A stretch of 50,138 nucleotides of DNA from Rhizaria sp. SCN 62-66 (Eukaryota): contig MEDY01000231.1 of NCBI GenBank assembly GCA_001724265.1, positions 1-50,138 on the forward strand, written 5' to 3'. The translations under genes were made by a program, and so were the position numbers. Under the pieces are notes generated by a model, which saw only the letters and a program-made list of their open reading frames with translations, searched no databases and was not told where the DNA came from. This document shows positions 76 to 49,890 of the stretch, piece by piece (the first letter of the stretch is position 1; each line of letters opens with the position of its first letter).

Positions 76-76
<1 letters not shown>

Positions 77-8832: not shown

Positions 8833-11800
8833 ATGTCTGAATTGCGTCCGTCGTACCTCGACGACCCGTTCTTTGCCGAGACGCCCGTGGCAGTGAACCC
8901 GCTGTGGCAGGGCGACCTCAAGGCGCGCCTCGCAGCGCACAAAGAGCAGCGTAGGCTCGCGGCCCTCGCACGCGGCAGGCCCGTGGCCGCCGCCGCTGCG
9001 CCCGCCGCAGCCCCTGCGCGAGTGCCGAGTGCAGCCGCGCCGGCCGCGCCCGTCGGCAGTGTGTTCGCGGGCACAGCTGCCATCTTCGGCCCCGCCGCGA
9101 CGCCCGCCGCGAGCGCCGCCACGGCTGCGAGTCTGGCTAACAGCAGTGGTGCCTCCGCCTCTGCCTCTGCAGCTGACTCGAGCGCTGCGTCTGTGTCTGC
9201 GGCCGCGATTTACGGCGCTGATGACATTGCGGCCGCTTTTGCGACGGGTATCGTCGCCGGCGCGGGTGTGAACAAGTCGCAGAGCATAGGCCCGATCCCA
9301 GCAGCTGCTACTGCGAGCGCTGCGAGTGCATCTTCCTCTGCGGCGACTGCAGCTATGCCTGCGGTGACCTCCAGCTCGAGTTCGAGCTCTCGTCTAGACG
9401 GCGCACACAGTGAGGCTGCAACCAGTGCAGGCGTCGCAATGAATGACTCGTACACTGTCCACGACAAGGACGACGACAGCCACAGCACCTCCGACGCAGC
9501 AGTGTCGCTGGATGAGTCCACGCTGAGTGACCATCGCAACATGAGCGCGAACAGCATCAACGACTTCCTCCTCGTGGCCGAGAGCCCCATCCTCGCCCCT
9601 CGCGCCCCTCAGCAGCAGCAACAGCACAATCACATGGGCGAAGACAGTGACAATAGTGTCTCTTCATCTGCCAGCACCAACGCCATCGACAGTGACAGCG
9701 ACGACAACGAATTCATCTCGCTGTCGGCCTTTGTCGAAGATGACCCCTATGCGGCGCCCACTGCCCGCGAGTACGCGCGCGCCGCCTACGTCGCCTCGCC
9801 GCCCGGGCGCCCGCCGTGGTGTCCCGCCCCCGCGGCCGCGCCCGCCGCGCCCGCGCTCGCGCTCGCGCACCTGCCTGTGCTCTCCGCCGCCGAGGCCGCC
9901 GTGGCCGCCGCCGCGGAAACGGTCAACCAAAGCAGCAGCGCCGGCAGCGGCTGTGGTGCGGGCGCGGAGCCGCTGCTGCGCCCGCGCGCCGCGCTGCTGT
10001 CTGGCGCCGCGGCCCGCGCGGGGCTGCCGCCGCTGGAGCGGCTGCACGAGGAGGTGCTCGACTTCGTGCAGTTCATCTCGCCGACGCAGGAGGAGCGGCG
10101 CGCGCGCGAGGCCGTGCTGAAGCGCGTCAACGCCGTGGTGCAGTCGTTGTGGCGTGATGCCTCGGTCCAGCCCTTCGGCTCCTCGCTCACGGGTCTCTAC
10201 CTGCCGCGCTCAGACCTAGACCTGGTGCTCACGAAGCCCATGACGGGCGATGAGGCGCGCGAGGTCGCCAAGCGCAAGCGGTGGATCCAGCACAACGGCG
10301 GCCGCGTGGGCGACTGCGCCTTCAGCAAAGGCGTGTTCGATCGGCTCACGCGCGCGCTCGCGGCGCAGGGGCTGGCGCGCGACGTCGAGGTCATCGCCCG
10401 CGCGCGCGTGCCCATCGCCAAGTTCACCGAGCCGGCCACAGGGCTCAAGATCGACGTGTGCATCAACGAGACTGGCGGCGTCGCCACTGCGCGGTTCATC
10501 TTGGAGCACGCGCTGCCCATCCCGGCTTTCCGTCCGCTCGTGCTTGTGCTCAAGCACTTCCTCGCCGCGCGCGGGCTCGCTGAGACCTACGGCGGCGGTG
10601 TCGGCTCATTCCTGCTGCAGCTCATGGTGCTGGGCTACTTGCAGCACCACCCTTTGCGCGGCAGCGTGCGCGACCTGCGTCACCCCGCCACGGCCCTGGG
10701 ACTCGGCGCGCGCGAGGCCGCTGTGCTCGCCGCCGCCGGCGCGCCAGAGGCCGCGGTCGCCGCCGTCGCAGGACTTGCCGCCGCAGCCGCTGCGGTTACT
10801 GCAACCGTCAACCATGACGCGAGCTCGAGCTCCAACTCGAGCTCTGCGAGTGCGAGCGCGAGCGCGGGTGTGGCTGATGACAGCGCTAGCGCCAGTGCCA
10901 GCGCCAGTGCGAGTGCGGCTGCAGTCGGCGCGGCGTCGTCGCTGCCGCCGCTGCCGGTCTCTGACGCCGACAGCCACGCTAACTTGGGCTCTCTGCTGCT
11001 GGGCTTCTTCTCCTTCTACACCACGGACCTCAACTACACTAAGGTTGGGCTCACGGTGCTGCACGGCGGCGCCGTCTTCAAGAAGGCGCAGCGCCGCTGG
11101 TTCAATCCCACGCGCCCCGCGCTGCTATCGATTGAGAACCCGGTGGACTCGGACCACGACGTAGGCGCCAACTCGTACGCCATCGCGCGTGTGCGCCGTG
11201 CTTTCCTGGCCGCGGCCGCCGCCGTGCGCGCGCGCGTGGCGGCCGAGACTGAGGCGTACCTGTGCGTGCGCGGGGCCAAGGCGCGCGCCGCGAGGGCCGA
11301 CGCCGCGCGCGACGCGCGCAAGCGTAGGGCTCGGCTCGCCGCCGCTAAGGGCAACGGCGGCGGCGTGATGGACGCGAAGCAGCGGCGCGCGGCGGCGGCG
11401 GCGGAGGCGTTGGGGCTGCCGTTCGCCGTGGGCAGCGGCGCGCTGGAGGAGCTCGTGTCGGCGAGCGAAAGCGGCAGCGACGGCGACTGTGCCACGCTGG
11501 GCGACTCGGACGACAGCGACGACGACGATGACTCGGTGTACAACCGTCGCGGTGGCAAGAACAACATCGGCAAGCGCGGTGGCAAGGGCGAGCTCACTGG
11601 CACCGTCAGCAACAAGGGTAAACAGCAGCGGAGTGGGGGGAATGCGCGCGACATCCCGATCGCCATCAGCGACACGGACAGTGACGCCGAAGCGGGCAGC
11701 AACCAGCCGCAATCAGTTGGCCCCAGTGACGTTGACGCGTCGGCGCTTGCACCGTCGGTGGTGCCCCCGCTGACGGCCTTCATTCCGTCGAACCCGTTTG

Positions 11801-13059
11801 TGTGGCCCGCGCTGCTGCCGCCGCCATGCGCCGGCTATTCACTCGCGCTGCTCGCCGCGCCAGTCACCTCGTTCGCCGCCCTCAACGCCAGCTCCTCCGC
11901 CCTCGCCAGCTCCAGCTCGAGCATTGCGAGTGCGAGTCAGCCGCTGGGGCAGTACACGAGCGCGCGCCGCGCGCACGCCGCCGCGGCGGCCGCGGGATGG
12001 GCCGCGGCGCCGCTGCTGCCTCTGACGCCTGCGCTCGAGGCCGCGCTGCAAGCGGAGATCCTGCGCGCAGCAAAGAAGGCCCGCCGCATCTACAAGCGCG
12101 CCGCGCGCACCGCTCTCCTCGCCGCGGCGGCTGCTGCTTCCAGTGAGCAGAGTGACCGTGGGCAGCGGGAGGTCACTGTTTCGCTGCCGGTGCACGTCGC
12201 TGTGCTGCCCGAGGGCTGGCTGGCAGCGGCCGCAGCGGCGCCCTCGCTGCTGCAGCTGCTGCTGCCTGTGACGCCCGAGGACATCGTGGGCCGCCACCCA
12301 CGCGGGGCCGACGCTGCCGCCGTGGACGCCGCACGCGTGGCCGCCGCCGCCGCCGCGGGCGGACTCGCCTGGCTCGCCAACGCCAACGCTAATGATGACT
12401 CACACTCTGGCTCCAACTGCCACGGCCACGGCCACGGCAAGGGCGCGGGCGAGAGCGTGAGTCTGGCGGCATGGAGCTCGCCGTTCGTGCCGTTGTGGGA
12501 CGGTGACGCCGACACGGCCGTGGACGTCGAGGCCGAGGAGGCCGGGCGCGCCGCGCTGGGCGCCGTTGCCAAGCTCGAGCGCGCGCTCGCGGGACGCGTC
12601 GCCGCGGCCGACTGGGGCGCGGCGGCCGCAGCCAGGTGGGAGCGCGCGCACAGGGCCGGCGAAGAGGAGGCGGCGCGCGGCGCGGCGGCGGCGGCGGGCG
12701 CGGGGAGCAAAGACAAAAGCAAAAAGGGTAAGGGCAAGGGCGCTGACGGTGACAGCCAGGGCGCTGGAAACGCTGGCAGTCAGGCTGATGTGGACGCCTT
12801 CTGGGCTCAGTACGACGACGAGGAGCTCAATAGCGGCAGCAACAGCGGTAAGAAGGACAAGAAGGACAAGAAAGACAAAAAGGACAAAAAGGACAAGAAG
12901 GACAAGGAGAGTGCGTCTGAAGCTGCCACTGCAAAGAAGGATAAAAAGGACAAGAAGGACAAGAAGGACTGCGAGCACGAGAGCGTCGCCAGCCTCGCCG
13001 CTGCCGCTGCCTCTGCCGCTACTGCGAAGAACAAGGGCAAGGACAACAATGCACATCAA

Positions 13060-13100
<41 letters not shown>

Positions 13101-14445
13101 CCAACCTAAGCACCAACATCACTAGCACCAGCAGCATATGCACATCACGATTGACTCCGCTGCGGCGAACCCGAACAGCAACAACAACAACAGCAAGAAC
13201 AAGTCTACTGTTGCTGTGACGAAGGACGCAGCACACGCAAGCTCTCGTGCGAAGCGCACCGCCGCCGCGTTTGCGGGCGACACTAGCAACGCCCGTCGCG
13301 GCGCTGATGCCAGTGACGACGACGATGATGATGACGACGACGACGACGACGATTTTTTCTCCGGCACGACGTTTGGCAACACCGATCTCGGCGATCCCAG
13401 CCACCTCTCTTTGCGCAGGGGCGGCAAGAACAGTGGCAAGAGCAGCGACAAGGGCGCAGCGCGCGTCGTCGACCTTAGCTCGGACTCCGACTCCGCGTAT
13501 GAGATCTACAGCCACCCGCCCTCGGCTGCAGCTGGCGCCCACGGTCACGCCCACGGTCACGGTCGTGGCGGCGGCAAGGCGACTGAGGTGGTGACGATCG
13601 ACGAGGACTCTGACTCCAACTCTGATGTCAAGGCCTCGGCCGCGAAGCGTGCAAACAGCGGCAAGGGCAAAGGCAAGGGCAGGAGCAGCAAGGACTCTGA
13701 GACCGAATACACCGGCAGCGACGACGACGACGACGACGATGACGCGAGTGACGCGTACGAAACCGATGACGACGACGACAACAGCGGGGGCAGGTGGCAC
13801 CACGAGTCCGACAGTGAAAGCGCCTACAGCGACGACGAGGACGATGACGACGATGACTACGACAGTTAGCTCCATGACTCTCGCAGCGGTGGCGGTCGTG
13901 ACGGCAGTCGCGGCGGCAGTCGCGGCGGCGCCCGCGGCGGCAGCAACAGCGGCTCCAGTCGCAACGCGTACCAGCAGCTGCCGCAGTACCAACACTATCA
14001 GCAGCAGCGCACCATCAACGGCATCGGCGGCGAGCGCCAAGGCCGGGCCCGCGGCGGCCACGGCAACGGCTACGGCGGGTATGACCGTAGTGACCGCAGT
14101 GACCGCGGCCGCGACCGCAGCCGCAGTGGGAGCTGCGGTCAGAACCAGAGCGGCAGCAACCGCGACGCGCGCGGGCAGAGTCGCGACGGCCGCGGAAACG
14201 GAAACGGAAACGGCAGCAGACAGCAACAGAGCCAGCCCGGTCAGGGCGGCAACCGCGCCCACAGTCGCGACCGCAGCCACAGTCGCGACCGTGGGCATGG
14301 GCACAGCAAGGCCGGCGAGGACTTTAGTGGCACCGGTGACGGCAAGCAGCGTAAGGGCAATGCGGGTCGGTCGGAGCAGGCACAGGCGCGGCGCAATCAG
14401 AAGAAGCAAAAGGCCAGTCGGGACAAGAAGTCACGCATGGGCTAA
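8833..14445 (+). CDS. TRF4: Non-canonical poly(A) polymerase, Trf4/PAPD5/TENT4-like; 1870 aa if TAG codons at 13123 and 13867 are read as sense
   Basis: Motifs LHEEVLDF, FGSSLTGLYLPRSDLDLV (GS + DxD), ARVPIAKF, IDVCIN, GGVGSF, NLGSLLLGFFSFY and LSIENP. ORF 8833-13125, ORF 13138-13869 and the downstream RGG/RS-rich segment share one frame, separated only by TAG. The frame ends with TAA 14443-14445 at the GC-to-AT boundary. Confidence 0.88.
12850..12969 (+). repeat. KKD tripeptide repeats (AAGAAGGAC-type units) in the Trf4 C-terminal region
   Basis: Translates to KKDKKDKKDKKDKKDKKDK...KKDKKDKKDKKD with synonymous variation between units. Confidence 0.85.
13123..13125 (+). other. In-frame TAG codon 1 (Trf4), context QQQNQPKHQHH*HQQHMH
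   Basis: CAC CAA CAT CAC TAG CAC CAG CAG CAT; the frame stays open to the next TAG at 13867. Confidence 0.8.
13867..13869 (+). other. In-frame TAG codon 2 (Trf4), context DDDDYDS*LHDSRSGG
   Basis: GAC AGT TAG CTC CAT GAC; 191 further sense codons follow before TAA at 14443. Confidence 0.75.
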
Positions 14446-14633
14446 CAAACCCACAAATGATGCTGAAACGAATCGATATTTATGTATGTTTGCAATTGTA
14501 ACTTAGTTATAGCGCTAGTTGAATAAAATAGTATGATTAATAGAAAATAGAAAGTGCATACCAAGATTAAACACAAATCAAAAAAGACAACAAACAAAAA
14601 CGGTGAGCTCTGTGGAGTGTCAAGCCGGGACAG

Positions 14634-28800: not shown

Positions 28801-29645
28801 CTGTCGCTGTCGTCTAGAATGTCGCGGTGCTTCTGCTTGTTTTGCTTACTCTGCTGGTTGGTAAGACTGCCGCTATCTGCGAAGGTGCCGTTGACATCTG
28901 CGGCCGCGGCGGGGTTGGTGCTCAGATACTCGTCGTCGTCGTAATAGTCGTGCAGCTTTGCGCGCTGGTAGTCCTTCCGCCGCGGCGGCTGAGCGTTGTT
29001 GTTGCTGGTAGGTTTGCTATTGTTGTTGTGATTGTTAGCATTGATTCTCAGGCTCGCGTTGAGGCTTGCACCAGCGCGCGGCGCCGCACTCGCGCTGCCG
29101 CTGCTGACCGGACTCAGACTGCTGCTGCTGCTGCTGCTGAGGGCGCTGGCTGCGGGGGCGCCGCTGGCGCCGACACCGTTGCTGTCGAGCGCCTGTTTGG
29201 TGACGGCGGCGGGCGTCTGCGGTACGAGACCGCCAAGACGGCCGGTGCGCGCGCGCCCGGGGCCGCCGGCGGGGTCCTCGCTGTCGTCGTCCTCGTCCTC
29301 GTCCTCGTCGCCGCCGCCGGATAGGCCGCGCGCGGAGCGTCCGAGGGCCGCGGAGGTGGTGGGCAGCGGGAGCGCAGGCAGGCTGGATCCAGCGTGGAGA
29401 CTCGCGGCGGGCGGCGTCGCAGCGGTGACAGCAAGTGCGGGCACGCCGGGGCCCGCGGCGCCCGCAGTAGCGGCAAACGCAGCGGAGTCGGATGCTGTGG
29501 TTGCAGCGGCGTTCGTGGCGGACGCGGAGGCGAAGGAGGGCAGGAGACGAGCTGCAGCGGCTGTGTCTGTGTTCTTGTTATTAACACCGCTCGCACTGCC
29601 GTTGATGCCACCCGAGGCGGAGCCACCGGTCTTGCGGGAAGACAT
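25842..29645 (-). CDS. SLC37A: SLC37A1/2-like sugar-phosphate/Pi exchanger (MFS, OPA family), with a C-terminal tail beyond an in-frame TAG at 26129-26127
   Basis: Motifs YHVTRRPYSIVKS, WEPF, GHIADRSDLR, GWPAVVAVMSNWF, RGCVMGVWNAHTSIGN, KLVAYTFLFWLP and NGPYALITTAVSADLG. ORF 29672-26127 and ORF 26108-25842 are in one frame; it ends with TAA at 25844-25842. Confidence 0.9.
26127..26129 (-). other. In-frame TAG codon 3 (SLC37), context QQVSVQTQPQPPS*PQGVVG
   Basis: CCG CCG TCG TAG CCG CAG GGC, followed by 94 sense codons before TAA. A 36-nt intron (GTGAGT...TCGTAG) is a possible alternative. Confidence 0.6.
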
Positions 29646-31040
29646 CACACCTGAAGGTAAGAGGGTGAGCAACTGACGCTCGACGCGGGCTTAGCGCGCG
29701 AGTGGGCGAAGGAAGAGCGCAAGCGCGTGCGGAAAGGTGGCGTGGCGATGGCGTCACCACGGAAGCGAGGCTGTGGAAGAGGTGTGCCAAAGTTTATAGC
29801 GTTACCGGCAATACTATAGAGTGCATTATGGCAAGGAAAATGACATCTCTGAGCGAGTTTTTTCAACAACGATGATAGAGGACGCAGGCGCGCGGCGAAA
29901 GTGGCGTTCAGACGATGTGTCTAGCGGTTTGTTCACTGGCGTTAATGTTTGCATACAAGCGCTCCACGGAGCGCACAAAAAAATCGCATTCAAATATCAA
30001 TTTAATTAGAGTTATATACACCCCGTTTTCTTAAACCATATTCTTTACATCGCCTTAAGCGTCTCTCCAGACACTGGCAGAATGACTCCAGTCAACGAGC
30101 CAGTCTCGATCGGTGGGGGTCTGATTTGTGGCCAGACTGGTTGGACTTGAGAGAACAGTCTATGTAGTCGTAATCTCTGGGTGAACAGACCAGGTTTTAA
30201 AACCCACGGGGATTATACGCACGAAATTTTATTTTGACAAATTGTAGAGTTCTCCAGCTTCCTTATATGCTGACCTATGAAAGGTCCTTTTTTGAAGATC
30301 GGCCACATCACGAGATCGGTTGTTTGGGCTACGCGCTGTCATACTAAGCAAGAGATACTGAACGATTCGCCCCGCAATTAACTGATAATACACGGCAATG
30401 TAACTGGTAATTATGGTTGCATTTTCCGACCGACTGAACACGCCTTTAAGTCCGTAAACACAGCTCCCTCCTGCTCATCATACGACACATTCTTTGTAAT
30501 GCCCACTTTATTCACGTCTTTACAGCAATGGATACGAATCTTCACTTGCGTGAATACAAAGAGGAGACATGTAGGAACCGATAATATTTGGTTCATTGCT
30601 GGAATCGAAATGTTACCATTTTTTATCGATTATATATATGCTGTAATTATTTATTTGTTTCATAGAAACTAGTTGTTCGTAGCGTAACGGCGCCGACCTG
30701 GCGCAGTCAACAACAAGCGATAGCCTTCACAGATGCGCTATTACTGCCCGCGCCCGCCGCGGCGACAGTGTTAGGCGCTGCAACAGCTGTGGCGAGAAAA
30801 GCTCTCTGGTGGGTTCGTGCAGTGGACACAAGCGGAACTGAAAAGAAGCAGAAAATTTGGCCGTTTTGAGATCTAATATAGCGCCCAAACAATATAACAG
30901 AGATGAAAAAAATGAAAAATTGAGTGAACCCATCGAATACAAGAGATAGAAACGTGGATTCTCTATTGAACGCAGATTGTCAAACTTTGTGCAAACAGTT
31001 TTGAATGTTCTAAAGTTAATATGCTCTTGATTGTCATTTC

Positions 31041-34000
31041 TTAGCTGCCGGTGCTCTTGGTGATATGTCTCCACGCAGAGAAACGTAGCGCAAAGTACGC
31101 CAAAATGCGGACGCCAATCATGAGGCCAATAACCGCAAAAGCGTTTCCGGCGTAGTGGCTGCCGCTGAGTGAAAATAGGTGCATGACATCGCTGCCGTTG
31201 ACCATGGGACAGAACTGCTCCATCGTGCCGTCGTCGAGTGGCACCGTGATGTACTCGTGAGGGTCGCAGCCAAGCTCGAGTCCGTTGAACTCGACTCCCA
31301 TCACGGACTCGAACATGAACTTCTGTGGTGACAGGACCTGAAGCCACTTGAGCCAGCCTACGCACCATGCAAATAAAAAAAAGTGAATACAGATATAATT
31401 GTGAGGAATTGACGTGCGTTAGCGTAAACCCAGTATATGCTAAGTAGCTTTGCATTTCACAACGTATGTGTGACTGAGCTTAAAAAATTTTGTCTTAAAG
31501 AGAGCATATACACAATCAACTGAGTATTACTTGTGCATCCTTACCTGGCATCGTCTCGTTATGTGCAAAGAATCCCGTGACCATCATAAACGGCACCATA
31601 ACAATTGGCGACAGCATGAGCGCTACCGTGCGATACGGCACGAGCGCACCAACAATGAGTGCGTACGAGTGCGTGGCCTGTCCGGTGAGGATCAGCGCAA
31701 AGATGTAGCCGACAAACTTGTTCATGTCGCCCTGAAGTCCGACCATGGGATACGCAAAGGCGCCGAAGATAATCGCAAGCACGGTCTGCAGTGCCATATC
31801 AACAAAAGTGCGCCCCAGGAAGTATGCCGACGTCGAGTAGATGTGCTTCTGCTTTTCGCGCAAGAAAAGCGCGCGCTCCTCTGTAAACGTGAGCACAGCG
31901 GCAACAATAGTGATAAACGCCTGGATCGACGTCATAAAGAACAGAAACCCCACGCGTGCGTACACACTTTGCTGCTTGTTGCCAGTCTGAAAAAAGAGCA
32001 GCCCGACAAAGACTGACAGGAACACGTTGACGGCCACACGCATGACTGTGTTCATCGGCTGGCGGATCACATGCAGAAACGTGCGGTGTGACAAGTGCTT
32101 AAGCTGGTGCTTAAACGCGAGCTGCGGCACGCCCGGAGTGATGTGCTCCGTGCCGCCTGCCCCGGCCTCACGGTCAAGGTGGATTCCGTAGGCGCCCTCT
32201 AGCCCCGCTACAGTAGACGCTGAGTTGCAAAACTCGCCCGGCGCCCCCAAGCCCGCGGCGCCGCCAACACCACCACTGGCGCCCGCACCGCCGGCGCCGC
32301 CGCGGCCGTCCTCGTGGTGGCTAGCGCGCAGGCGCGGAATGTAGTTTGTCAAAAACGGCGTTAAACGAGGGTCGCGCGGCACAGGCCGCATGAGGTACTG
32401 CTCGGCAACTAAGTTAAGCCGTGTGTCCTCGCGCGATGCAATGATGCGCTTTATTGCCATGCTTGACAGCGATGTGAACGGGTAACGGGCTTTGCGAAGT
32501 GCGAGAAGACCATTAACAGTCTTTTTAGCGGCGCTATTACCGTCTGCATTGTCGTTCTCGTCCTCCTCGTTAATGCTGCTTGAGTTCACTAAAGCTGCTT
32601 CCGTGACTACGCTGCTCTTGATGCGCAACTTCGACTTAATCAGCTCAACAGACTTGTGCCGCGGGTCGTGCGGCGACAGCGCGGTGGCCGTGCCCTTCTG
32701 CTCCGCGACAATGAGATCGCGCAGCATGTCGGTTGAGTTCTGCTGCAGCACGTTGAGAAAGAACTCGGCCGGGTTTGCCGACGCCGGGCAGTTGTAGCCG
32801 AGCCCAGTGAAGTAGTCAAGCGCGCGCGGCGCGGGGCCGAAGTACGCGAGCTTGCCGCGCGACAGCAGCACGAGTGTGTCGAACATGTCGAAGATCTTGG
32901 TGTTGGGCGAGTGAATTGTGAAAATGACTGTACGACCAGTGCGCACAAGGTCCTTAAGCACCTTCATCACCTTGACAGCGGTCGTCGAGTCCAGGCCGGA
33001 CGTCGGCTCGTCGAGAAACAGGATCGCGGGATCGCGGATCATCTCGACGCCGACCGACACGCGCCGCCGCTGGCCGCCAGAGATGCCGCGCACAAACGCA
33101 GTGCCAATGGGCGTGTCAGCGCAGTCGAGCAGATCAAGCTGCTTCAGAATGCGTTCCACACGCTTCATCTTGCGCTCCTCGCCAATGGCCTCGGGCAGTT
33201 GCATTTTGGCCGCAAAGCGCAGGGTCTCGCGCGGCGTTAGCGTGCCCAGCAAGACGTCTTCCTGCAAGTCTCGGTGTTGCGTAGCAAATAAATAAGAGTT
33301 AAGGGAGAGCTGTAAGTGCGTACACAAAAATTAAGTTTTACGAATAACGTCATTTCATCGGTAACTTGATCACACTTTTGGTCATGCGTACCTGCATCAC
33401 GTATCCTGTAAGCGAGCCTAACTCCGTCTCCGACACGCGCGTGCCGTTGAGCAGCACATTGCCTGTCGAAATTCCGTGTTTTTTTAGGTACTCCTCCTCA
33501 TTGCCCCTGCCACCAGCTCCGCCAATGCCGTTAGTAGCCGCGCCGTCCTCGTCTTCATCAGACCACGCCCCGCCGCCTGCGGCAGCTGTGCTGCTGGCAG
33601 CGGCCGCGGCCCCAGGCTTGCGCTTGCGCATGTCCGTCGGTTTGAGCTGGATGCGGCCCGAAAGCGCGTTGAGCAGCGTCGTTTTGCCCGCGCCGGACGC
33701 GCCCATAATGGCGACCATGCGCCCGGGCTCGATGACGCCGCTAAGCCCGTCAAGAATTGTTTGCGGCACGTTCTCCATCGCCTCACGGTTGCACATCCAG
33801 CTCAGCGCCGGGCACGCCGAGCCGCGGCCGCCAGAGTCGTCCGCGCCGCCGTCGGCGTCGTCGTCGTCATCCTCGTCCCAGCGCCCGATCGGCGCGGCAA
33901 AGTCGTCGACGGCGTCGTGGCCGTGACCGTGGGCATTACTGCTGCTGATTGTGCCGTTTGTGCTGTTCTTGTCCCAGCGGCGCGCACCGCTGTCGTGGCC

Positions 34001-37000
34001 AACTGCAAGAAGGCTTGGTGTGTCAGGAGTAGCAAACGCGCTTGCAGCAGCACGATAACGCGCGGCAGCGCTTGGTTTTGCACCAGCGCCAGTACCAACA
34101 GTAGCGGCGCTAGCGCCTGAGCGGCCCTTACCCCTGTTAGTGCTTGTACCGTTCGTGGTAGCTTGCTCTTGCACGCTAAGCTCGTGAGTAACACTCTCGC
34201 GCCCGCGGTTTTTTGGAAGGCGTTTGATGACGCGCACTGAAACGTTGCGGAATTCAATTCGCGTTGGCTCTTTGACACTCCAGCGCTCTACTTCCTGCGG
34301 CACCGTGTGCATCTGCGCGTACTTGGCCGCCAACTCATGCACGTCGACATGCCTGCGCACGCTCACGTCGCTATTGTCCGCCCAGTCGGGCGCAGTGGCG
34401 ACGGGCGTAATCGCAGCAGCCGCAGCGCGCGCGGCGGCAACCTCGGCAGCGGCCTCGGCGGCGGCGACGGCAGCGGCAACGGCACGGTCGGTCGCCTCGC
34501 GCTCCTCAGCTTCGCGGCGCAGCTTGACCTTGAGATACTGCTCACCGGCATCGCTCTTGTCGCCATCGCTGCCAGCGTCGTCGTCAGTGCGACTCACAAT
34601 CTTGTCGCTGCCGTTTCCGTCAACATCCGTGTCGCTGTCGCTGAGCGCATTGGCGTGGCGCCGGGTCTTTGCGCTTGGCTTTTCGCTGCCAGCGCTTAAC
34701 TTGGCAGCAGCAGCTGCAGCCGCAGTGACTGGCTTCTTGACGGCGAGCGCAGTGTTATTTTTTGTTCCGTGGGAGTTAGTGTTGTAGCGCTCGTCGTCGC
34801 TTGTTAGCTCAACGTCGCTGCGGAGAGACCGTGAGCGTGACCGCGAGCGCGACTGCGGGTGTGCGCGTTGTGACTTTGTTGTAATGCTATTAGCAACAGC
34901 AGGCGTTGGGCGCACAGTGCAAGACGCAGGGGAGCCAAGCGAGAACTCAACTTTGTCACCAACCTTGACATCAACAGCATTGGTTGTAGAGTCGATGTTT
35001 GCGCTAAGGGCAGCGGCAAGGTCTTCTGCCGCAACCATGCTGCCGGTGCGCCCGCGCTGCTGTTGCCTTTGCTTTGATCCGGCCTTGGTCGTCTTGGTGG
35101 CAGCGTAGCTCGGCGACGCAATAGAAGCAAACGCGCTTGCGCGCGACTTGGGGCTCAAGTCAGAGACGTTGCTGCTGCCGCGGACAATGCGAGTGGCACT
35201 GTCCATAGCACCTTCTTCTTCGTCATAGTCGTCTACATCCTCTTTAGTGTTCACTGTGTTTGCACAAGAGTTCTTCGCAGCAGTAGTTGACAATCCATCA
35301 CTTTTGACGTCTTTGCTACTAACAGCGCTCGCAATGGCGTTGCTCTTGCTCTTGCTTGTGATGTTGCTCTTGCTGTTTAACGCAACGCGGCTTGAGACTA
35401 ACGCAACTGCTTCGCTTGCAAGCTCCTGCTGCTTTTGCTTTCCGGTGTCGCCAGTCCTGAGTCCGGGTGTCGCGACTGCAGGTCCGGTGCAACTTGGCAG
35501 AGCACGAGTTGACGTAGAAGCCAAGGTGGAGGCCGGTGCGGAGGACAGGGCTGAGGTGGAAGCTGTGGCTGCAACCGCCGCGGTCGCAGCCGCGCGCTCT
35601 CTCTCGGCCACAGCCGCAGCAACGGCGTCACGCGCCCTTGCCACCGCATCAGGCGTCTTTGAGGGTGCCGCAACAGCAGCCGCACTTGCGACAGCGGGAG
35701 TAAGGCGCGTGCTTGCAGGAATAGCGGTAACATTGGCGGTGGCAGCGCGGGTTACAGCGGCGGTATTAGTGGTTGTGACAGCCATGGGATCCGCAAAGAC
35801 GTCGTCGTCTTCCTCGCTCGCGCCGTCTCCGCGGGTGTTCTGTTGCTCGAGCTGTTGCTTGAGGCGGTACTGCTCAGCGGCCGCAGCCTTTGCCGCTGCG
35901 CGTTGCGCGTGCTTAAGCTGCTTCTTGATGCGCTTGGAATTGACAGCAGCTGCAGCTGTACCGGCACCAGCAGTGTAGACCGCGTTTGGCGAGTCTGCGT
36001 CAGATTCCGATGCAGTGCTGGCCTTGACACTCTTGTCAGTGCTGTTGTCAAAAACTGGAATGGCTGTTACGGAGGGGCGCGTCGACAAACCTGGCATCAC
36101 CGCCAGCCCGCCGAGCGCGGGTCCCGTTGTATTCACTGTCACTGGCAGAGGCGCCGGCATTGCAACTGCGCCGAGGCCCAAGCCCAGGCCAAGACCGGCG
36201 GCTCCTGGTGGCGCGTAGAAGGACGGGGGTACAGCGCTGTAGCCGCCGCTTCCAACGCCCACAGCCGCGACCGCGGGTTGGCCCAACGCAAGCGCGATCT
36301 GCGTGGGCGTCGCGCCGCGGCTGACGCTGCCGCCCGCGCTGGCGCTATTGCCCGCGGCCATGTGGCCGTGGCCGTGTGCGAGTGAGGCGGCGAGCGGCTG
36401 CGGGTACGCAAGGCTGCTGCTGCCGTGCGCGTGGCTGTGCGCGGCGCTGGCCGGCCGGCTGAGCGCGGCGGGAGCAAGGGACATGGCCGCACCGGTAGCA
36501 AGGCTGAGGCTATCGCTATGTCCGTGGCGCGACGGCTGCTGCTGCTGATGGTGCTGCTGCGGGAAAGTCAGCACGTTGTTGTTGCCGTGGCTGAGGCTGC
36601 TGCTTTGGCTGACAGGGCGCGCCGCAAGGTGGCCGTGGGCAATGACAGGCAGTGCAGTCGCGTGAGCCAGCGACGGCGGCAGCGAGTCGCCTGACTGCAG
36701 TGGGAAAGCTACTGCGGGTGCGGCTGTGCCATACCCAAGAACAGCTTGAGTACCTGCGGCAGTCACGGGAACTGGTGGTGTTGGAGGCGAAGCAGCAATG
36801 TTATTATTGCCCAAAATGTTCGCGCTGAGCGCAGATAAGTCATGCGCAAACGCACTTGACGGCCGCCTCTGCTGTGCGTTGATGTTTCCAACCACGGCAA
36901 GCGGCAGCGCGAACTGAGGCGGCTGCTGCTGACGCGTGTTGCTGGTGGCGCGCGGAGACGACGGCGCCGATACAGAGCCGACGCCGCCAGCGCCGTCGCC

Positions 37001-37600
37001 GCCGTGTCCGTGGCCATGGCTGCCGGTACGGCTGTGCGCGCGTGTGCGGCTGTGCGCAAGTGACGGCGGGCCGGCGTGGGCGCTACCGACGACGACAGCA
37101 GCGCCGCTGCTGATGATACTGGTGTCGTTGGTGGCGTAGTCGGCTGTGTAGCCGTACACAGCTGAGTTACCGAGCGCAGCGGAGTGACCGTGAGCGGAGC
37201 CAGGCATTGAGTGCCGATAACTTAAATCGGTTGCGCTAGTGCCAGTGATAACACCCGCGCTGGCGTTGGTGCTGACGCCTGCGTTCGCAAGGAGCAACGA
37301 CTGCTTGTCGGCAAACGGCAGCCCCGCAGCGGGAGCAGGAGTCGCTGAGCGAGATGCGATGTGCATGTTGTACAAATCGGTCGCTGATGCAGAGGACGAA
37401 GACGAGGACGCGGGCGAGCCGGGCCGGGAAACAGCGCCTGCGTTGTTAGCGCCGCTCGCAGTGTTGCCGTTAGTTGCGGAGCTGCCCGTGATGCTGGAGA
37501 AGGCGGGGGTCGGCCCGCCGCCGCCGTGCATTGTAGAGCCCTGGCGACGGTGGCGGTTGCTTGCAGCAGCCGCAGCCGGCGCAGAAGCGGAGGGGTCCAT
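31041..37600 (-). CDS. ABCG (White-family) half-transporter A with a very long disordered N-terminus, exons 37600-33392, 33261-31545, 31357-31041
   Basis: Walker A GASGAGKT, Q-loop GYVMQ|ED, signature ISGGQRRRVS, Walker B LFLDEPTSGLD, TIHSP, NPAEF and a C-terminal TMD. Introns 33391-33262 and 31544-31358 preserve frame; TAA stop. Confidence 0.93.
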
Positions 37601-38416
37601 AGCGCGCGTCTCGGCGGAGCAGTCCGATTGACGCGTTATGCACTGAGACTGAAGAGCGCTGAAAGCAGACCTGAAGAGGGGCTGTCAAGGAAGATCTGAA
37701 GCACGTTCAACGCGTTAGCGTAAGGATATTATTGTGAGTCGTTGTTGTAGACTACAATCAACTTAAAAATGTGGGAAAACAATGATTTTTTTTTAAGATA
37801 GGCAAGATATGAGTCGACACAAATGAGGAAAAACGAGGAGTAGTGGGAGTTGTTGCAGGACGATCGCGGATCGTTTGAAAGAGTCGATACACAATAAAAA
37901 CATATGTCTCTCAAAGTTATATGCTGGTAAAAGATAAACACAACAAAGACATAACGTTTCTATGAGGTATAACTTGAAAATCACACAAGTATATGATGAA
38001 CATCTCGATTTTTTTCGGTGTAGGTCAGGCTCGCAGGCAGATTTTTTGCCTCACCGCTATTGCTTCCGTGCCCCTCGTGCTCACAGTCGACATTTGAAGC
38101 TAAGCCACCCAGGCACACAAAGGAGCAGCAGCAACAACGTCTTCAAGTCACTCAACTTCAAATCCATCTTCTACTTCACAGCTCCGTTGTAACGCTCTTT
38201 CTTGCAACTTGAACAAAATTATGTTCGGTAATGCACCCCAACAAAATGTTGCTTTCTCACATGCTGCCTACATTGCCCCGCCCTGGTCACTTCTAATTCC
38301 CATGCTTCAAGTTGTTCTTAACCTTAGCGCAGCCTCTTCTTTCTCCCTTTATACCTACAACGGCTGCTTCCTGGTGAACAGCGCGCGTTGCTGCTGCCAC
38401 TGTTCCTGAATCCGCA

Positions 38417-40101
38417 ATGCCAACGCTGTCCTTTCACAGCATCACCGTTTCGGTGCCCGACATCAAAGGTGCGCGCCGCTATCTCCCCGCCGCATGCGTC
38501 TCCAACGCCAACCGGCGCGAAGTATTGCACTCAATCTCTGGCAAGTTCCCTCAAAAGGGCATCGTCGCAATCATGGGCCCGTCCGGCTCCGGCAAGACCA
38601 CGTTCCTCAACGCCGTGAGCAACCGCATGGCAATCGGCGGCTCCAGCGGCGTCAAGTGCTCCGGTGCTGTGCGCGTCAACGGGCGCGAGGTCGACCCCGA
38701 GTTCTTTTACTCCAAGTCCGTCTCGTTCGTCCCGCAGGACACGTGTCTCTTCGCAGAGCTCACGCCGCGCGAGGCTATCCGCTTCTCTACCACGCTGGTC
38801 TACCCCACGATGTCGGCGCCCGCAGTGGAGGCCAACGTCAACAGCACGCTCGCCGCGATGGGGCTCGGCAAGTGCGCGGACACGCCGGTCGGAAACGAGA
38901 TGTTCCGCGGCGTCTCGGGAGGCGAGCGCAAACGGTACGAACACACGTTTGATTAAAAAAAGCACTCCATTGGGATTGCAGCTTAATGCCTTTGAAGTGA
39001 CTTGAAGTCTGACATGCTCGCTTGACACGTCGCTTTACATGTACTGCAACATCCTGTGACTGATTGCAGCAACTTGAAACCAATATTACTTAAATGGCGC
39101 AGGTGTGAGCAGACACATCTACAAACAAGCTAACAGATCTGATTTGTGAACTGTTCTTGCATATGTTCTAGCACGAGTATCGGCGTCAACATTGTTAACA
39201 ACCCGTCGGTGCTGTTCCTTGATGAGCCAACCACAGGTCTCGATAGTACGTCACTTTGTTCTTACGCGCAAACTTAAAGTTCGAGCTTGAATATCTGAAT
39301 ATACATCTTATATGCATCCTGTATTGCTTTGACTCTCCTTGTAGCCGAGACTGCCGCGATGGTTGTTCGTTCGATTCAGAACATCTCCGGCTCCCGCCCC
39401 TCCACGAACGCAAGTTCGAGCTCGAGCTCGAGCTCGGGTTCCAGTTCCAGCTCCAGCTCAATCACCTCAACCGCCCCGCCGTCGTCCGCCGCGTCCACGG
39501 CTGACTCTGAGGAGGACGGCCGCATCGTGATCATGACCCTGCACCAGCCGTCGTCGGACATCTGGGACATGATCGACCACCTCGTCATCCTGGCGCAGGG
39601 CTACGTTGTCTACAACGGGCCCGCCAAGGACGCCATGGACTTTTTTGTCTCCATTGGCTTCCGTCGGCCCACACACATCAACCCCGCGGACTACTTCCTC
39701 GACATCGTGCAGTGCGAGGAAGACGACGACGACGCCAGCGCCGCCTCAGCCTCCGTCGCTGCGGCGGCGGCGGTGCCGCAGATGCCTGCGCTGCCCGGTT
39801 CCTCGGCTGCGGCTACGGCAGCGGCGGCGGCGGCGGCCAGCGCGGCGGTTGTTGCGCGCACCAAGGGCTCCAAGAAGCAGCGCGCGAAGTTTCTCGCGAC
39901 TGCGTGGCGTCACCACGAGAAGCTGCGCCGTGCGCCGCCCCCGATCCCCAGCAGCAACAACAACAACATCAGCAGCAGCACTGGGGCTGGGATTGGTTCT
40001 GCCACCTTGAGTGTTACCAGCGCTGCGGCGCCGGGGCGCGGGGCGGCAAGCGTGGGTGCACTGATGGGCTGGGACAACGGCCGCAGCGGCAACGCCGTCA
40101 C

Positions 40102-40132
<31 letters not shown>

Positions 40133-41740
40133 GCTGTCGGTGGTGGCAGCGTGACCAACGTCGTGAAGGACGCGCGCAGGGCCAAGCTCGAGGAGATGGT
40201 GCGTAAGTACAACGAGCGCATGCAGCAGCAAGCCGAGGACAACGGCGACGCGCTCGACGAGGAAGAGGACGACGGGGGATACGGCTATGATGAAGCGGCG
40301 TACGTCAACACAGCGTTTTTCGGAGATATCTCGCTTGTTTCTTGAATAGTTTAAACAATATTCCGCAAATGTAAAAACTATTTATTTTTACATTTGAATC
40401 TATTATTTGTTTTTAAATTTTAAAATATCTCTCAAATTCTGAAACGTTGATTTGATTTCTGGCGATCTAAAAAAATATCGGCCGAAATTAACTTTCATCA
40501 CTATCTTCTCACATCTTGACATGATGACTTGTTTTGCGCGTTCACAGTGCTCCCAATGGCTCATCGTTAGCCCCTTACGGCAGCGCCTTGTCTACCCCGG
40601 CGCAGGCGGTGAAGGGCACGTGGAGCCACGAGCTCAAGACGCTCACCGCGCGGTCCTGGAAGACGTTCTCGCGCACTCGGTACGTAGGCGCTGAGAGTGA
40701 ACCAGCGCTGTAACATTTGAGCCCAGTGCGCCTTTGCCTTGAGTGAAAAAATCCACTGAATTACTGAGAGCTCTATTTGTGCACATTTGTGAGCTTATGC
40801 AACTTGAAAAACTTGATTCTCACACTTACACTTTGACGCCAATTCTTGTTTTCACCACAGCCTGATGATCCCAATGAAGCTGGTGCAGATCTTCATCACC
40901 GCTGTGCTTATTATCGGGCTTTTTTCCCCATTTGGCTTCGACCAGATCTCGGTGCTGAACCGCACGGGCTGCATGTACCTCGTCATCATCGTCCAGATCT
41001 TCGCCACTGTGCTCTCCGTCGTCATGCTGTTCCCAGCGGAGCGCGGCGTCTACCTCAACGAGCAAGCGCAGCGACTGTACTCGGTGTCGTCTTACTTTGT
41101 TAGCAAGCTCATCATTGACCTGCCAATCCTTACCCTGACCATCTTTGGCTTCTGCCTGCTGGTGTACTTCCCCGTCGGCTTCCAGAGCGACTTCGCACGC
41201 TTCCTGCGCTTCTTCTTCGTGCTCGAGGGCGTCGCCATCTGCGGCCACGCCATGGGGCTTATTGTCGCCGCCTGCGTTGCCTCCCCCGCCATTGCCGCCC
41301 TGCTCGCCCCCATGGCCATCGCGCCGTTTATTCTCTTCTCGCACATCGCCATCCCCGGCGACCCTGACGCCAAGATCATCGGCATCCTGCGCCCGTTCCA
41401 GATATTTTCCCCCTTCTGGTGGGGGCTTGACGCGCTGGCCGTAACAGAGTTTGCGGGGCTCAAGCTGCACTGCACCGACGACCAGGTGTACGCCGTGCCC
41501 TCAGTCGAGCACGGGCTGCTTTACATGTGTCGCTTCGTGTTGGGAGAGGAAGTCCTAATGAGCTACAGCATCCACCTGGGCGCCTTCGCGCCCTCGCTCG
41601 TGTACCTGTTCCTAATTGCCACCATGCACGTCGTCATGTCGGGCGTGCTGCTCAAGGTACTCTCGCTGCGCGTCGCTAAGTGCGTGCCGATGGAGCCGCC
41701 GCAGGCCGCCGTCAGCGCGCCGCGCCTCGTGCGCAAGTGA
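38417..41740 (+). CDS. ABCG (White-family) half-transporter B, exons 38417-38934, 39172-39245, 39345-40299, 40548-40679, 40861-41740
   Basis: Walker A GPSGSGKT, FVPQD, VSGGERKR|TS, LFLDEPTTGLD, TLHQP, NPADY and a TMD with FPAERGVYLNE. Four GTACG-AG introns with consistent phases; TGA stop. Confidence 0.93.
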
Positions 41741-42376: not shown

Positions 42377-44491
42377 TCACGCAACAGAGCTGCTGTCCCC
42401 CCCAGCAGCAGAGCCAGGCGCGGCAGGGGCAGCGACTACGGGCGCGGGCGCGAACATGCTGTCGGCCAGAGCGACCTTCACAGGCGCCGCTGCAACAGTA
42501 ACAGCAGTATAAACAGGAGCAGATGCAGCCCCAACCTCAGCAGGAGCAGCAGCAGCGCTAGGAGCGACGACAACTGGAGCCAGCGCCGCCGCCACAGTCA
42601 TGGGGACTGCAGGGGCAGCAGCAGTGGCGGCGGGCGCAGCGGCCGTCGCGGGCGCGGGCTTGGCGAGCCCACGCGCAGCGGCCTCGGCGCGCATGCGGTC
42701 GCCAAGCTGCTTGAGCACGTCGGCGCCGCCTTTCTCGTTCATCACCCACTGCTTCATCTTCTCGTCGTTGCCAACAGCGAAGGTGCCGAGCATGACGCCC
42801 AGCAGGATCAGCAGCCCGATGTTGCGGTGCGCGCGGAAGGCCGCGCCGCACGCCTCGCGGTTTGTAGGGTCCAGCGCGCGAACCTGCTGCAGCATGAAGC
42901 GCAGCGGCAGCAGCGCGGTGAGACAGAGCCACTCGATCGAGGCCGAGTTGACAGAAACGAGCCCCGCGGCCGCGAAGCAGCCCGCCGCGGCCCACGCGAA
43001 GGCGCGCAGGTACGCCTTGATCTACACAGCGATGAAACAAAACAAAAACGGAGCAAAAGCGGAAAATACCAGCGTTGTGAGTGATATATCGGCGATAAGT
43101 CTTAAAAAAAGAAATAATTATCGCAAGTGAAGCATAAAAGTAAGATCTCTTTGGCCGCGTACCTGCGGTCCGAAGTGGAGCGCCGTGGACTTGACGCCGA
43201 TCTCCTTGTCGTCTTGCGTGTCTTGAAGCGCGTAGACGGTGTCGTAGAAGATGGTCCACGCGACGCCACCCAGGTGCAGCAGTGCGAGCGCGGGCGCGTG
43301 CGGGGCCAGGTTCTCCACGCCCACCGCGGCCGCCGCGCCGACCCAGAGCCCCCAGTTGAAGGTGAGTCCCAGCACGGCCTGCGGCCAGTTGGTGTAGCGC
43401 TTCATGAGCGGGTAGGCGACGACGAGCGGCACGGCGGCCATGGCGACGGCGGCCACGCGCAGGTCGCCGATGGCGGGCAACACGGCCAGCCCCACGAGGC
43501 ACTGCAGCGCCGTGAAGGCCAGCGCCTGCGGGGCCGACACGGCGCCCGACGCCAGCGGCCGCGTCTGCGTGCGCGCCACGCGGCGGTCAAAGTCGCGGTC
43601 CCACAGGTCGTTGATGGTGCAGCCCGCGCCGCGCATGGCGACTGCGCCCACGGCGAGCGCCGCGCACAGCGAGAGCGCGGGCGCGCCCTGCGGCGACACC
43701 AGTGCCGCGCCCCAGTAGCAGGGCAGCAGCAGCAGCCACGTCCCGATGGGCTTCTCGAGCCGCGCGAGGTGCGCGTAGTGCTGCAGCGCGGGCGGGAGCG
43801 CGGCGACGAGGCGCGGGGCCGCGGCCACGGATCCCAGCGCGCGGAAGAAGGCGCGCGCCTCGGTCAGCAGCGGCAGCGCGGCCAGCCCCGCGGGCAGCGG
43901 GGTGAGCAGCAGCTCCTCGGCGCGCGCAAACGGCGCGGGGAGGAACGACTCCAGCTGCGCCTGCGATTGTGCAGGCAGTTGCGCCTGCTGCGGCGGCTGA
44001 GGCTTAGATGGCGAGTTTGCGACTTTGGCGGCGGCTGCTGTGTTGGAGAAGGCGCGCACGGGCAGCGCTGTCGAAGCCAGGGGGTTGCACGCGGAGGCCG
44101 CCGCCGTAGAGCTAGCGCTGGAGCTGGAGCAGGAGAGCAGAGCTCCTTGTGTGGACGCGAGACGAGGGCGGGGGCCCGTGGCAGCGAGCGAGCCGCTGAC
44201 GCTGAAGGGGCGCGAGGGCAGCGACAGGACGGCGGTGCGCGCGGCGCCAGCGCGGGCACGGACGCGCAGAGGCAGCTGCACGGGTGTAGTGGCAAGAGCG
44301 CTGACTGCAGCAGCCGCCTTAGGGTTGAGCGCAGCGGCGAGCGAGGACGCGGTGCGCACCGAGGCCCCGACAGTAGCGGCAGCGCTGTGGCGGCACGGGG
44401 AGAAGGGAGACGAAGATGCCGGGAGGGAGGCGGCGGCAAGCAAAGACCTGCGCAGAGCAGCAACCGGCTGGCGAGCGCGCAAGGCAAGCAT
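42377..44491 (-). CDS. COQ2: 4-hydroxybenzoate polyprenyltransferase (UbiA family, mitochondrial), exons 44491-43163, 43021-42377
   Basis: RLEKPIGTWLL, MRGAGCTINDLWDRDFDRRVARTQTRPLASG, YPLMKRYTNWPQ, LGLTFNWG and YDTVYALQDTQDDKEIGVKSTAL. Arg/Ser/Ala-rich presequence; phase-0 intron 43162-43022; TGA stop. Confidence 0.96.
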
Positions 44492-47432: not shown

Positions 47433-49890
47433 TCAGTCCCACTTCGTGCTGCGCTCCTTGTCAGCGTAATGCTTGGCCCAGTAGGCCTCCCAGAAGCGCG
47501 CGCGGTACGGCGCCGCGGCCGTGGGCGCCGCCGCCGAGGGCGGGTGGAACCAGTAGTTGACCGCCATGTGGCCCGGGCCGGCCGGACTGGCGGCGGCCTC
47601 GCTCTCGGAAGCACTCGCCGCCGCAGGCACAGGTGCAGGCGCGGTCACAGTCTCGGCCGCGCTGTTCGGGTTGCCGCCGGCGCCAGAGCCAGCGCTAGCG
47701 CTGGGGGAGCAAGAGGTGACTTCGTGAAACCAGCCGGCGGGGAGGTACAGCGCCTCACCGGGGGTCATGTACACCACACCTAGAGCGTCGTCAAGTCGTG
47801 GAGAGGCGGACATGAACGCACAGATTGGAGAGAAAACGATAAGAGAAGAACATCAAGAAAACAAGAAATAAGCAGACAGTCATATCACAATATGCTGCGA
47901 TTCAGGTAGATATGCGACAATACGTCGCTTTAGGAAGCGTGTTTCGATGATATAGTGCGTACCCTTGTTGGCCTCGAGAAAGTCTGCATACTCTTCTTTC
48001 CACTCAGGCTTCATTCCGAACACGTCATCGAGCGTGATGACGTCGTCAAGTTCCTCCTCCTCCTCGTCCGCCGCCACCGCAGTGGTAGACTGGAGCTTGC
48101 GGGCGACCTCACGCACAAGCATCTTGGCCGACGTCGCAGGAGCCTGCGCCAGCAGCAGCGCGCGCGGGATGCCAGAGAAGTGCGGGAAGATGTGCGACTT
48201 CTTGGTCTCGTCGGCGCCGGCGTCGGCCTTGGCCTTGGCCGCCGCCTGCTTGGCCTTGGCCTTGGCGCTCGCGCTCGCCTTGACGGCCGCGCGCTTGCCA
48301 GTCGCAGGCCCGTCCTCCGCGTCATCGTCATCGTCATCGCCATCGTCGGCGTCGGCGTCAGCGTCGGCGTTGGCGTCGGCGTCGGCGTCGGAGGCGGGGT
48401 CGGCGCCGTCCAGTCCGTCACCGTCAGTGTCGTCGCCGGAGTCCATGTCCACGATGTCGCTACACAATCCGACGGAGTGAAGAGTTTACAGTGAAAATCA
48501 AAGTGAAAAAGATAACGAAAGCAACAGGTATTAATTAGAAATGATATTATTGCACATCTTGAACTTGATTTCAACTCGTTAAGAGAACAGTTACAGTTGA
48601 AGAATGACGTATGATTCGACGTACGCATACTCCATCTCGAGATCCATCGACAAATCAATCGCGGCCTCCATATCGCTCTCCAGGGCCTCCTTCTCCGCCC
48701 GGGCCTTCCCCGCGCCCTCGGCGTCCCCGGCGGCATCGCTCTGCGCAATCTCCGCGTCGTGCGCGGCAACGGCGAGCTCGAGGCGGCGGACCTCCTTCTT
48801 GAGAAAGCGCTTGAGGATGGGCGCGGGCACGCCCTCGGGTGTGATGGCGCGATTAGACGAGTAAACCAGCACACCCGTCGGGTGAACGCGTGACACCAGG
48901 CCTGCGAGGGGAGGAAGAACGCGCGATTACAGAAAAAACGCATCGCAAGAGAACTTCGTGAGTTTGATTGAAATGCATTTGATTACACGGAATTTTAAGA
49001 GGTACGTTAAATATAAATTGAATACAGCTATAAAGCGAATGTCGGCAAGCGTACCTCGCGTGTGCATCTTGCCCGCGTCCCTGGGCGAGAAGATCTGGAA
49101 GCGCTTCGCGCCGCGCAACAGCAGGTAGAGGTTGTCGTGGAAGTCGTGGTGCAGCCCACTCGACGCGCCGTCCTTGGCCTGGCCCAGCCACACGTTGAGC
49201 TGGTACGGCACCAGCGGGGCGAAGAGTCGCGGGCGCAGCGGGAAGTCGTCCGCGAGGCGCGTGAGCGGGGAGGCGAGCAGCGCTGGCAGGTCCGAGCCCT
49301 CGTAGTCCTCGGTCTGGCTGGTCAGGTAGTAGAACGGGCAGTTGTTCTCGACGTGCGTCAGCAAGTCCTGGAAACGCATCGGGATGCGTGGGGCCGACTC
49401 GCCAAAAAAGCTCTGTGAAAAGGGCACATATATAACGTAATATTACGAAATGGTGAGATGAGGTCAGAGAGAAAGCATCGATAGAAGATGAAGACCAAGT
49501 GAGAAAACGGACGTGAGCTGAAGCGAGCGACGACATGTACATAGGATGAGCGCAAGAGAAAAGCAATAACGCGTTGTCGCTATGTACCTTAGTAGATGTG
49601 CGTTGCTCGACCTGCACGGTGGCGCCTCCGGCAACGGTCTTGAGGTAGTCGTTGCTCCATTTGGCGAAGTTGCAGAAGTCTGGCGACTGGAGCGTGTTAA
49701 GCAGGATGCACGGCTTGCGCTGCGCCACATAGTCGTTGAAAAACGCCTAGGGGGTCGTCTGAAGCACGTCCACGCGGTCAATTGACCAGGTGGAGGACGG
49801 AATGGTGAAACCCTTGTAGGAGCGAGCCACATCGGCCTTCTTGGGCTTCTTCGTCCGCAGCGGCTGCGCTGCGCCAGCACTGCGCTTCAT
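47433..49890 (-). CDS. JmjC/cupin-8 Fe(II)/2-oxoglutarate dioxygenase, exons 49890-49588 (contains an in-frame TAG), 49412-49055, 48901-48625 (or 48631), 48459-47963, 47779-47433
   Basis: YKGF...IDRVD...TP*AFFNDYVAQRKPCIL, KWSNDYL, YYLTSQ, NVWLG, SSGLHHDFHDNLY..LRGAKRF, LYLPAGWFHEV and HMAVNYWFHPP. The HxD...H triad is intact. Four frame-preserving introns; TGA stop. Confidence 0.92.
49747..49749 (-). other. In-frame TAG codon 4 (JmjC codon 48), context IDRVDVLQTTP*AFFNDYV
   Basis: ACG ACC CCC TAG GCG TTT TTC, 47 codons downstream of ATG 49890 and inside the conserved cupin-8 N-terminal block. Confidence 0.85.

Follow-up and report, generated by a model that had tools for sequence, protein, structure and literature searches.

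In-frame UAG codons in a contig of Rhizaria sp. SCN 62-66 suggest that UAG is read as a rare sense codon

Three genes on a 50,138-nucleotide (nt) contig of Rhizaria sp. SCN 62-66 (MEDY01000231.1; this whole stretch, at its full length, is here called the window) carry four TAG triplets within otherwise open reading frames. Our analysis indicates that the organism probably translates UAG as a rare sense codon and terminates translation at UAA and UGA. A preliminary description, made from the sequence alone, had proposed that UAG is sense, probably Gln, with UAA and UGA as stops. The first part of that proposal stands as the best explanation of the window, where it concerns four codons, and a sense UAG is the simplest account of all four sites; the assignment to Gln fared less well, as discussed below.

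The four TAGs (13123 and 13867 on the forward strand, 26129 and 49749 on the reverse strand) are all present as described, and each sits in the reading frame of a gene supported by Pfam matches. Two belong to a Trf4/Cid1-type poly(A) polymerase-like gene, one to an MFS/SLC37-like gene, and one to a JmjC/Cupin_8 gene (Table 1). Coding signal was assessed as the codon-usage log-odds of the 150 nt 3' of each stop triplet, together with the GC content of third codon positions (GC3) and periodicity. Past all four TAGs, the next 150 nt in frame are coding-like (log-odds of +0.25 to +0.63, GC3 of 0.74-0.82), whereas past all 13 of the terminal TAA or TGA codons examined the log-odds are negative (-0.22 to -0.91) and periodicity is absent. 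Codon log-odds past the TAGs match the level of intact genes, and the three TAG-bearing genes show neither a frameshift nor an in-frame TAA or TGA. This bears out two further statements of the preliminary description: that GC3-rich codon usage continues beyond each TAG up to a TAA or TGA at a composition boundary, and that these genes require no internal TAA, TGA, or frameshift.

At all four sites, the reading frame carries on in phase beyond the TAG, an outcome expected by chance about once in 81 (hand arithmetic); this speaks against a role of the TAGs as intron acceptors. Two other TAGs adjoin open reading frames (ORFs) and lie outside exons; that at 589-591 is an intron acceptor, and that at 43022-43024 is read as intronic. 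A survey of every stop triplet in the window found open, coding-like flanks of 40 codons on both sides of 6 of 621 TAGs, 0 of 687 TAAs, and 0 of 1326 TGAs. This flank test is not clean, because two of the six passing TAGs, at 28815 (+) and 46202 (-), are antisense artifacts. With flanks of 20 codons it becomes noisy and uninformative: 4 TAGs, 4 TGAs, and 1 TAA pass, all but the TAG at 13867 lying antisense to a known gene.

Codon 48 of the JmjC gene is the strongest of the four sites. The gene model is phase-consistent, with four GTAC..AG introns of 153-183 nt (GC of 0.35-0.44), and its sole in-frame stop is the TAG at codon 48. Of the Cupin_8 profile, positions 1-56 map to exon 1, 79-177 to exon 2, and 214-250 to exon 5. 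Exons 2 and 5 score 54.1 and 38.2 bits against a cutoff of 27.4, and exon 1 alone scores 22.5 bits, which is below it. The metal-binding HxD and the distal His can be read by eye as HHD in exon 2 and WFHEV in exon 5. A full HMMER scan that used exon 1 as query returned 142 hits. In an alignment of 41 of them, chosen from the top 43, conservation reaches at least 90% at residues to either side of the TAG: Y25 and G27 on the 5' side and F50, R58, P60, W78, and others on the 3' side. Of 143 aligned homologue stretches, 139 have a residue in the TAG column and 4 have a gap, so that a residue is expected at codon 48. The rest of exon 1 beyond the TAG lacks an in-frame Met, and a downstream start would therefore forfeit conserved residues. 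In every run, imperfect contigs by the hundred, along with spurious joints, align to a (GAC/GCC)n low-complexity stretch of exon 4 (48344-48405); they derive from other sequences and were disregarded.

We compared a DNA run (X4), a run from a poly(A) RNA library (X6), and two more runs (X5 and X7) with a stretch of the window; two others (X8 and X9) held small shares and were not used. X4, X5, and X7 carry pieces of the window with no differences. A DNA contig from X4 (49468-49820) and an RNA-library contig from X6 (49665-49910) both span the JmjC TAG, again with no differences, and both runs belong to studies other than the probable source. The JmjC TAG is thus not an assembly slip. Public gene-caller products tell the same story at two of the TAGs: a 53-amino-acid product ending at the JmjC TAG occurs on 4 contigs, with a K>R variant on another contig that ends at the same residue, and a 1172-amino-acid product ending at the SLC37 TAG occurs on 3 contigs. 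These products also illustrate a practical consequence of the proposed code, namely that gene calling under the standard code truncates the proteins of this organism exactly at the TAGs.

The remaining three TAGs lie in the C-terminal parts of the Trf4 and SLC37-like genes. Matches to PF22600, PF03828, and PF01909 cover residues 458-829 of the translated ORF 8671-14445, and both Trf4 TAGs, 248 codons apart, lie 3' of PF22600 and PF03828. GC3 is 0.7-0.9 up to about position 14350, after which composition is 0.3-0.4; the log-odds of the whole ORF are 0.41, and the tail beyond the first TAG has a comparable value (Table 1). The 189 codons that follow the second TAG (13870-14437) lack an in-frame ATG, GTG, or TTG, so this segment cannot be a separate ORF or gene. 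For the SLC37-like gene, Pfam MFS_1 matches the ORF 25842-29690 (-) with E = 1e-33, and the TAG lies 3' of this domain; the best named matches of the protein are annotated as "glycerol-3-phosphate transporter 1." A protein search with the SLC37-like sequence found 6 proteins, one of them the window's own product and the others 35-44% identical. The corresponding Trf4 search found 2 proteins at 31-32% identity, and exact look-ups of two pieces of the Trf4 ORF gave no match.

Terminators were judged for 14 genes. When UAG is read as sense, 7 genes end in TAA, 7 in TGA, and none in TAG; with a true TAG share between 0.15 and 0.30, the probability of finding no TAG in this small sample of 14 would lie between 0.10 and 0.007. 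The first in-frame stop coincides with the composition boundary in 11 of 11 genes in which that stop is TAA or TGA and in 0 of 3 genes in which it is TAG (1/364 by a Fisher test done by hand). The terminus of an ABCG gene in the window is corroborated by the identical C-terminus of its 72%-identical orthologue, P0147.

Which amino acid UAG would specify is less clear than the proposal that it is decoded. Two of the TAGs sit in Q/H-rich and Q/P-rich contexts, and a single CAG>TAG transition would suffice to produce the codon, both of which point toward Gln. The sole informative column, that of JmjC, points instead toward Glu over Gln: its residues are E 52, Q 25, K 17, R 17, A 9, S 4, H 4, L 3, D 3, G 2, V 2, and W 1 (n = 143). 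We regard Gln as an evenly balanced proposition, and the "probably" of the preliminary description as too strong; an amino acid other than these two is a less likely choice, and Glu is rather unlikely. Under a sense reading, UAG would be decoded by a tRNA whose anticodon is CUA, in the simplest case a mutated tRNA-Gln, and eRF1 would have lost or weakened its recognition of UAG. The window contains no rRNA, tRNA(CUA), or eRF1 gene.

Several observations weigh against reading UAG as sense. The evidence base is four codons on one 50-kilobase (kb) contig, and three of the four lie in low-complexity C-terminal tails without homologues; protein searches with both Trf4 and SLC37 found no relative that covers either tail, and the 94-codon SLC37 tail gives a modest signal, with log-odds of only 0.20 even though its frame is the best of six. 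The absence of TAG from the 14 terminators presupposes the reading, and under the standard code 2 of the 14 genes end in TAG. With the codon usage seen here, a random single-base nonsense change yields TAG in 63-65% of cases, and the fact that all four triplets are TAG is therefore weak when taken alone (p of about 0.16-0.18 under a nonsense-mutation null). For a tRNA(CUA) in the window, ARAGORN offered only one dubious 102-nt prediction and Rfam nothing. The compared runs yielded no splice joint, and one X6 contig (47560-47865) covers exon 5 together with 86 nt from intron 4, reflecting either intron retention or DNA carry-over. X6 may thus represent unspliced RNA or carried-over DNA, and its contig across the TAG does not prove a mature mRNA; the lack of coverage by the RNA run over JmjC exon 2 and, apart from this contig, over the introns proves nothing. 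Finally, the compared runs contain no variants over 3.2 kb and hence give no measure of selection on the tails.

The main alternative, which draws on these points, is that the standard code applies and that the TAGs are real stops of recent origin, the Trf4 and SLC37 tails being dispensable and persisting as undecayed relics, and the JmjC gene being a null allele fixed in a near-clonal population. The possibly dispensable position of three of the four sites, the clonal appearance of a population without variants over 3.2 kb, the prevalence of TAG among nonsense outcomes, and an ordinary 2 TAGs among 14 terminators would all fit. Yet this would require four independent nonsense events in ~12,000 codons, hitting three of about 16 genes without any accompanying frameshift or any TAA or TGA in frame. 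Nor have the tails drifted toward an AT-rich, noncoding composition, and the JmjC gene retains all five exons intact, along with full codon bias and the Cupin_8 match; its codon-48 stop is common to a strain with an amino acid change. We consider recent stops improbable. A different possibility is a UAG of dual meaning, or a leaky UAG stop, that would end many genes genome-wide and be read through here, by context or partially, by a near-cognate or low-abundance suppressor tRNA. Such a codon could well be found in frame at ~0.3 per 1000 codons and at tolerant positions only, and a set of 14 terminators is compatible with a modest TAG share. The following base would also suit it: C after a stop is the leakiest context, and C follows TAG at 3 of 4 sites compared with 2 of 13 terminators, 11 of which are followed by a purine. 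At ordinary rates, however, two readthroughs in Trf4, or one at JmjC codon 48, would presumably leave very little product, and TAG coincides with the boundary between coding and noncoding sequence in no gene of the window. We give a dual or leaky UAG little credence as well. The related phenomenon of programmed readthrough in standard-code eukaryotes resembles our case in that two genes would gain a C-terminal extension past UAG-C. Here, however, one UAG is at codon 48 inside a catalytic domain and, in another gene, a second UAG lies 248 codons past the first, a layout unlike that of a regulated extension.

It could also be that the TAGs never reach the ribosome, owing to an assembly error, to splicing in which they form intron 3' ends, or to RNA editing. 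Each TAG holds an AG, two real JmjC introns end in TAG (GTGTAG and CTCTAG), and no spliced RNA contig was recovered in the compared runs. Most of what we observed speaks against this. Contigs from two other studies are identical at the JmjC TAG, one of them from an RNA library that still reads TAG, and ORF ends at the TAGs are common to several assemblies. At every site the flanking sequence stays GC-rich and coding-like as far as the TAG, in contrast to the real introns of 153-183 nt with a GC of 0.35-0.44; homologues align without gaps across the JmjC site; and all four downstream frames are in phase. We therefore hold this explanation to be highly improbable, and a sense UAG remains the reading that we favor.

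How would a sense UAG compare with known cases in which UAG alone has changed? The code of the anaerobic fornicate Iotanema has the meaning of NCBI table 15. According to passages of PMC5304391, Iotanema spirale (Fornicata) reads UAG as Gln and keeps UAA and UGA as stops. Our case would be alike in that only UAG is changed and UAA is a stop, and Gln is the favored reading here too; unlike Iotanema, the window encodes COQ2 and a mitochondrial-type uL1, and its genes are GC3-rich. The same passages describe a rhizarian, exLh (Sainouroidea, from Lygus hesperus), with UAG as Leu on the strength of 384 in-frame UAGs in 71 genes at conserved Leu positions (PMC5304391). As proposed for our case, this is a UAG-only change in an uncultured nonciliate that came to light from sequence data, but here Leu occupies 3 of 143 places at the informative column, and UAG is rare, with 4 occurrences in about 16 genes. 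Among ciliates, sections of PMC11687900 report UAG as Leu in a phyllopharyngean TARA lineage and as Gln in the phyllopharyngeans Hartmannula and Trochilia and in Protocruzia tuzeti, with UAA firmly a stop in these ciliates and suppressor tRNAs in two genomes. The reassignment of UAG alone, with UAA kept as a stop, would be common to them and to our case. Unlike those ciliates, the organism studied here has a 50-kb contig, GTAC..AG introns of 153-183 nt, and GC-rich exons (65-72% GC), a combination of long contig, intron type, and exon composition that we take not to be ciliate-like. The green alga Scotinosphaera, as cited in part of PMC11687900, reads UAG as Ser and UAA as a stop. It, too, is a freshwater eukaryote with a UAG-only change, but Ser accounts for 4 of 143 residues at the JmjC column, and the window is without a plastid-related gene. 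Iotanema and a rhizarian, named with some ciliates as precedents in the preliminary description, are in print, but its list was incomplete: PMC11687900 adds Scotinosphaera, Protocruzia, and several phyllopharyngean ciliates. We found no report in the open-access literature of a UAG-only code in a wastewater eukaryote or in a GC-rich nonciliate eukaryote.

Our case would add to this known kind, the UAG-only reassignment, and would be set apart within it by a very low UAG load. By a hand sum of ORF lengths, the window has 4 in-frame UAGs per ~12,000 codons, or ~0.3 per 1000. UAA and UAG mostly change together and splits are few, according to passages of PMC5304391 and PMC11687900; a further case would be an independent data point on the uncoupling of UAG from UAA. 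That UAG is rare and occurs at tolerant sites only points to a sense codon that is young or poorly decoded. A more speculative extension is that we have caught an incipient reassignment early, in a lineage outside every known deviating group, with UAG decoded at this low frequency, at tolerant sites, and no longer ending genes, and with an amino acid that might even be Glu. We put this forward tentatively and think it possible rather than probable. If true, a GC-rich, aerobic, intron-bearing wastewater eukaryote could show an early stage of reassignment, namely the "codon-capture / ambiguous-intermediate" stage that has been mostly theoretical so far.

The affinities of the organism were explored mainly through its ABCG protein. 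In a tree built by a quick search from 37 rows chosen among the 120 listed, the window sequence, its 72%-identical relative, and two further proteins form a clade without a named sister. Best named matches disagree by gene, pointing to Amoebozoa for ABCG, chlorophytes for SLC37 (35-44% identity), and a chytrid for JmjC. A metagenome scan with JmjC exon 2 reached a top identity of 59% among the best 80 of 226 confirmed loci, and hence neither the organism nor a close relative is present in that metagenome collection; prokaryote genomes, when scanned with the ABCG protein, contained 6 matching loci, all bacterial, at 24-37% identity. P0147, a 906-amino-acid ABCG orthologue with 72% identity to window 31044-34000 (-), is encoded on a 21-kb metagenome contig and is the only moderately close relative found. 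It is continuous through the positions of two window ABCG introns (31359-31542 and 33268-33391, -), so this relative seems to lack both. An ABCG intron begins with GTAAGG. The JmjC introns (47780-49587, -) open with GTACAT, GTACGC, GTACGT, and GTACGC, and a GTAC-type 5' splice site may aid in placing the lineage.

Table 1. Features of the window. An asterisk in a context marks the TAG.
Feature	Position	Strand	Notes
In-frame TAG no. 1	13123-13125	+	Trf4 gene; context HQHH*HQQH; downstream log-odds +0.63, GC3 0.74
In-frame TAG no. 2	13867-13869	+	Trf4 gene; context DYDS*LHDS; downstream log-odds +0.36
In-frame TAG no. 3	26127-26129	-	SLC37-like gene; context QPQPPS*PQG; 94 more codons to TAA; downstream log-odds +0.25, GC 0.77
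In-frame TAG no. 4	49747-49749	-	JmjC codon 48; Cupin_8 profile position 2; context TTP*AFFNDYV
Trf4/Cid1-type poly(A) polymerase-like gene	8833-14445	+	Single ORF, ATG 8833 to TAA 14443-14445 if both TAGs are sense
Trf4 tail past TAG no. 1	13126-14442	+	439 codons; 0 TAA, 0 TGA, 1 TAG; log-odds 0.45, top of six frames
MFS/SLC37-like (glycerol-3-phosphate transporter-like) gene	25842-29645	-	TAA 25842-25844; start is the first Met of the translation, by eye
JmjC/Cupin_8 gene	47433-49890	-	Exons 49890-49588, 49412-49055, 48901-48625, 48459-47963, 47779-47433; 593 codons; TGA 47435-47433
PFK2 (6-phosphofructo-2-kinase) gene	1-1560	-	Runs off left window end; TAG 589-591 beside second ORF is an intron acceptor, not a codon
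ABCG half-transporter gene	31041-37684	-	Head to head with the next
ABCG half-transporter gene	38378-41740	+	Head to head with the preceding
Genes for an unknown protein, MAPEG, a sugar-type MFS transporter, S28 peptidase, mitochondrial-type uL1, and Las1			
Genes for a second unknown protein, COQ2 (UbiA family), and EI24			

The window as a whole is eukaryotic in character. Exons have a GC content of 60-73% with a GC3 of 0.7-0.9, compared with 30-50% GC in spacers and introns. We recognized about 16 genes rather than the 15 models of the preliminary description; none is plastid related. The ABCG gene at 31041-37684 (-) has a very long, low-complexity N-terminal ORF of ~1400 codons. The single ARAGORN prediction mentioned above, a "tRNA-Gly(gcc)" of 102 nt at 27209-27310 (+), lies within the SLC37 coding sequence on the antisense strand; Rfam has no tRNA match at its gathering score in this place, and the prediction is probably a false positive. 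The stretch of the window with which runs were sought is present in wastewater, bioreactor, and microbial-fuel-cell metagenome runs from several studies, and the DNA runs X1-X4 contain the contig. Over the last 94 bases of the window (50045-50138), contig depth in four runs is far above that of the neighboring unique sequence (in X4, 129 versus 2.5-6). These bases probably belong to a dispersed repeat, which would account for the assembly ending there.

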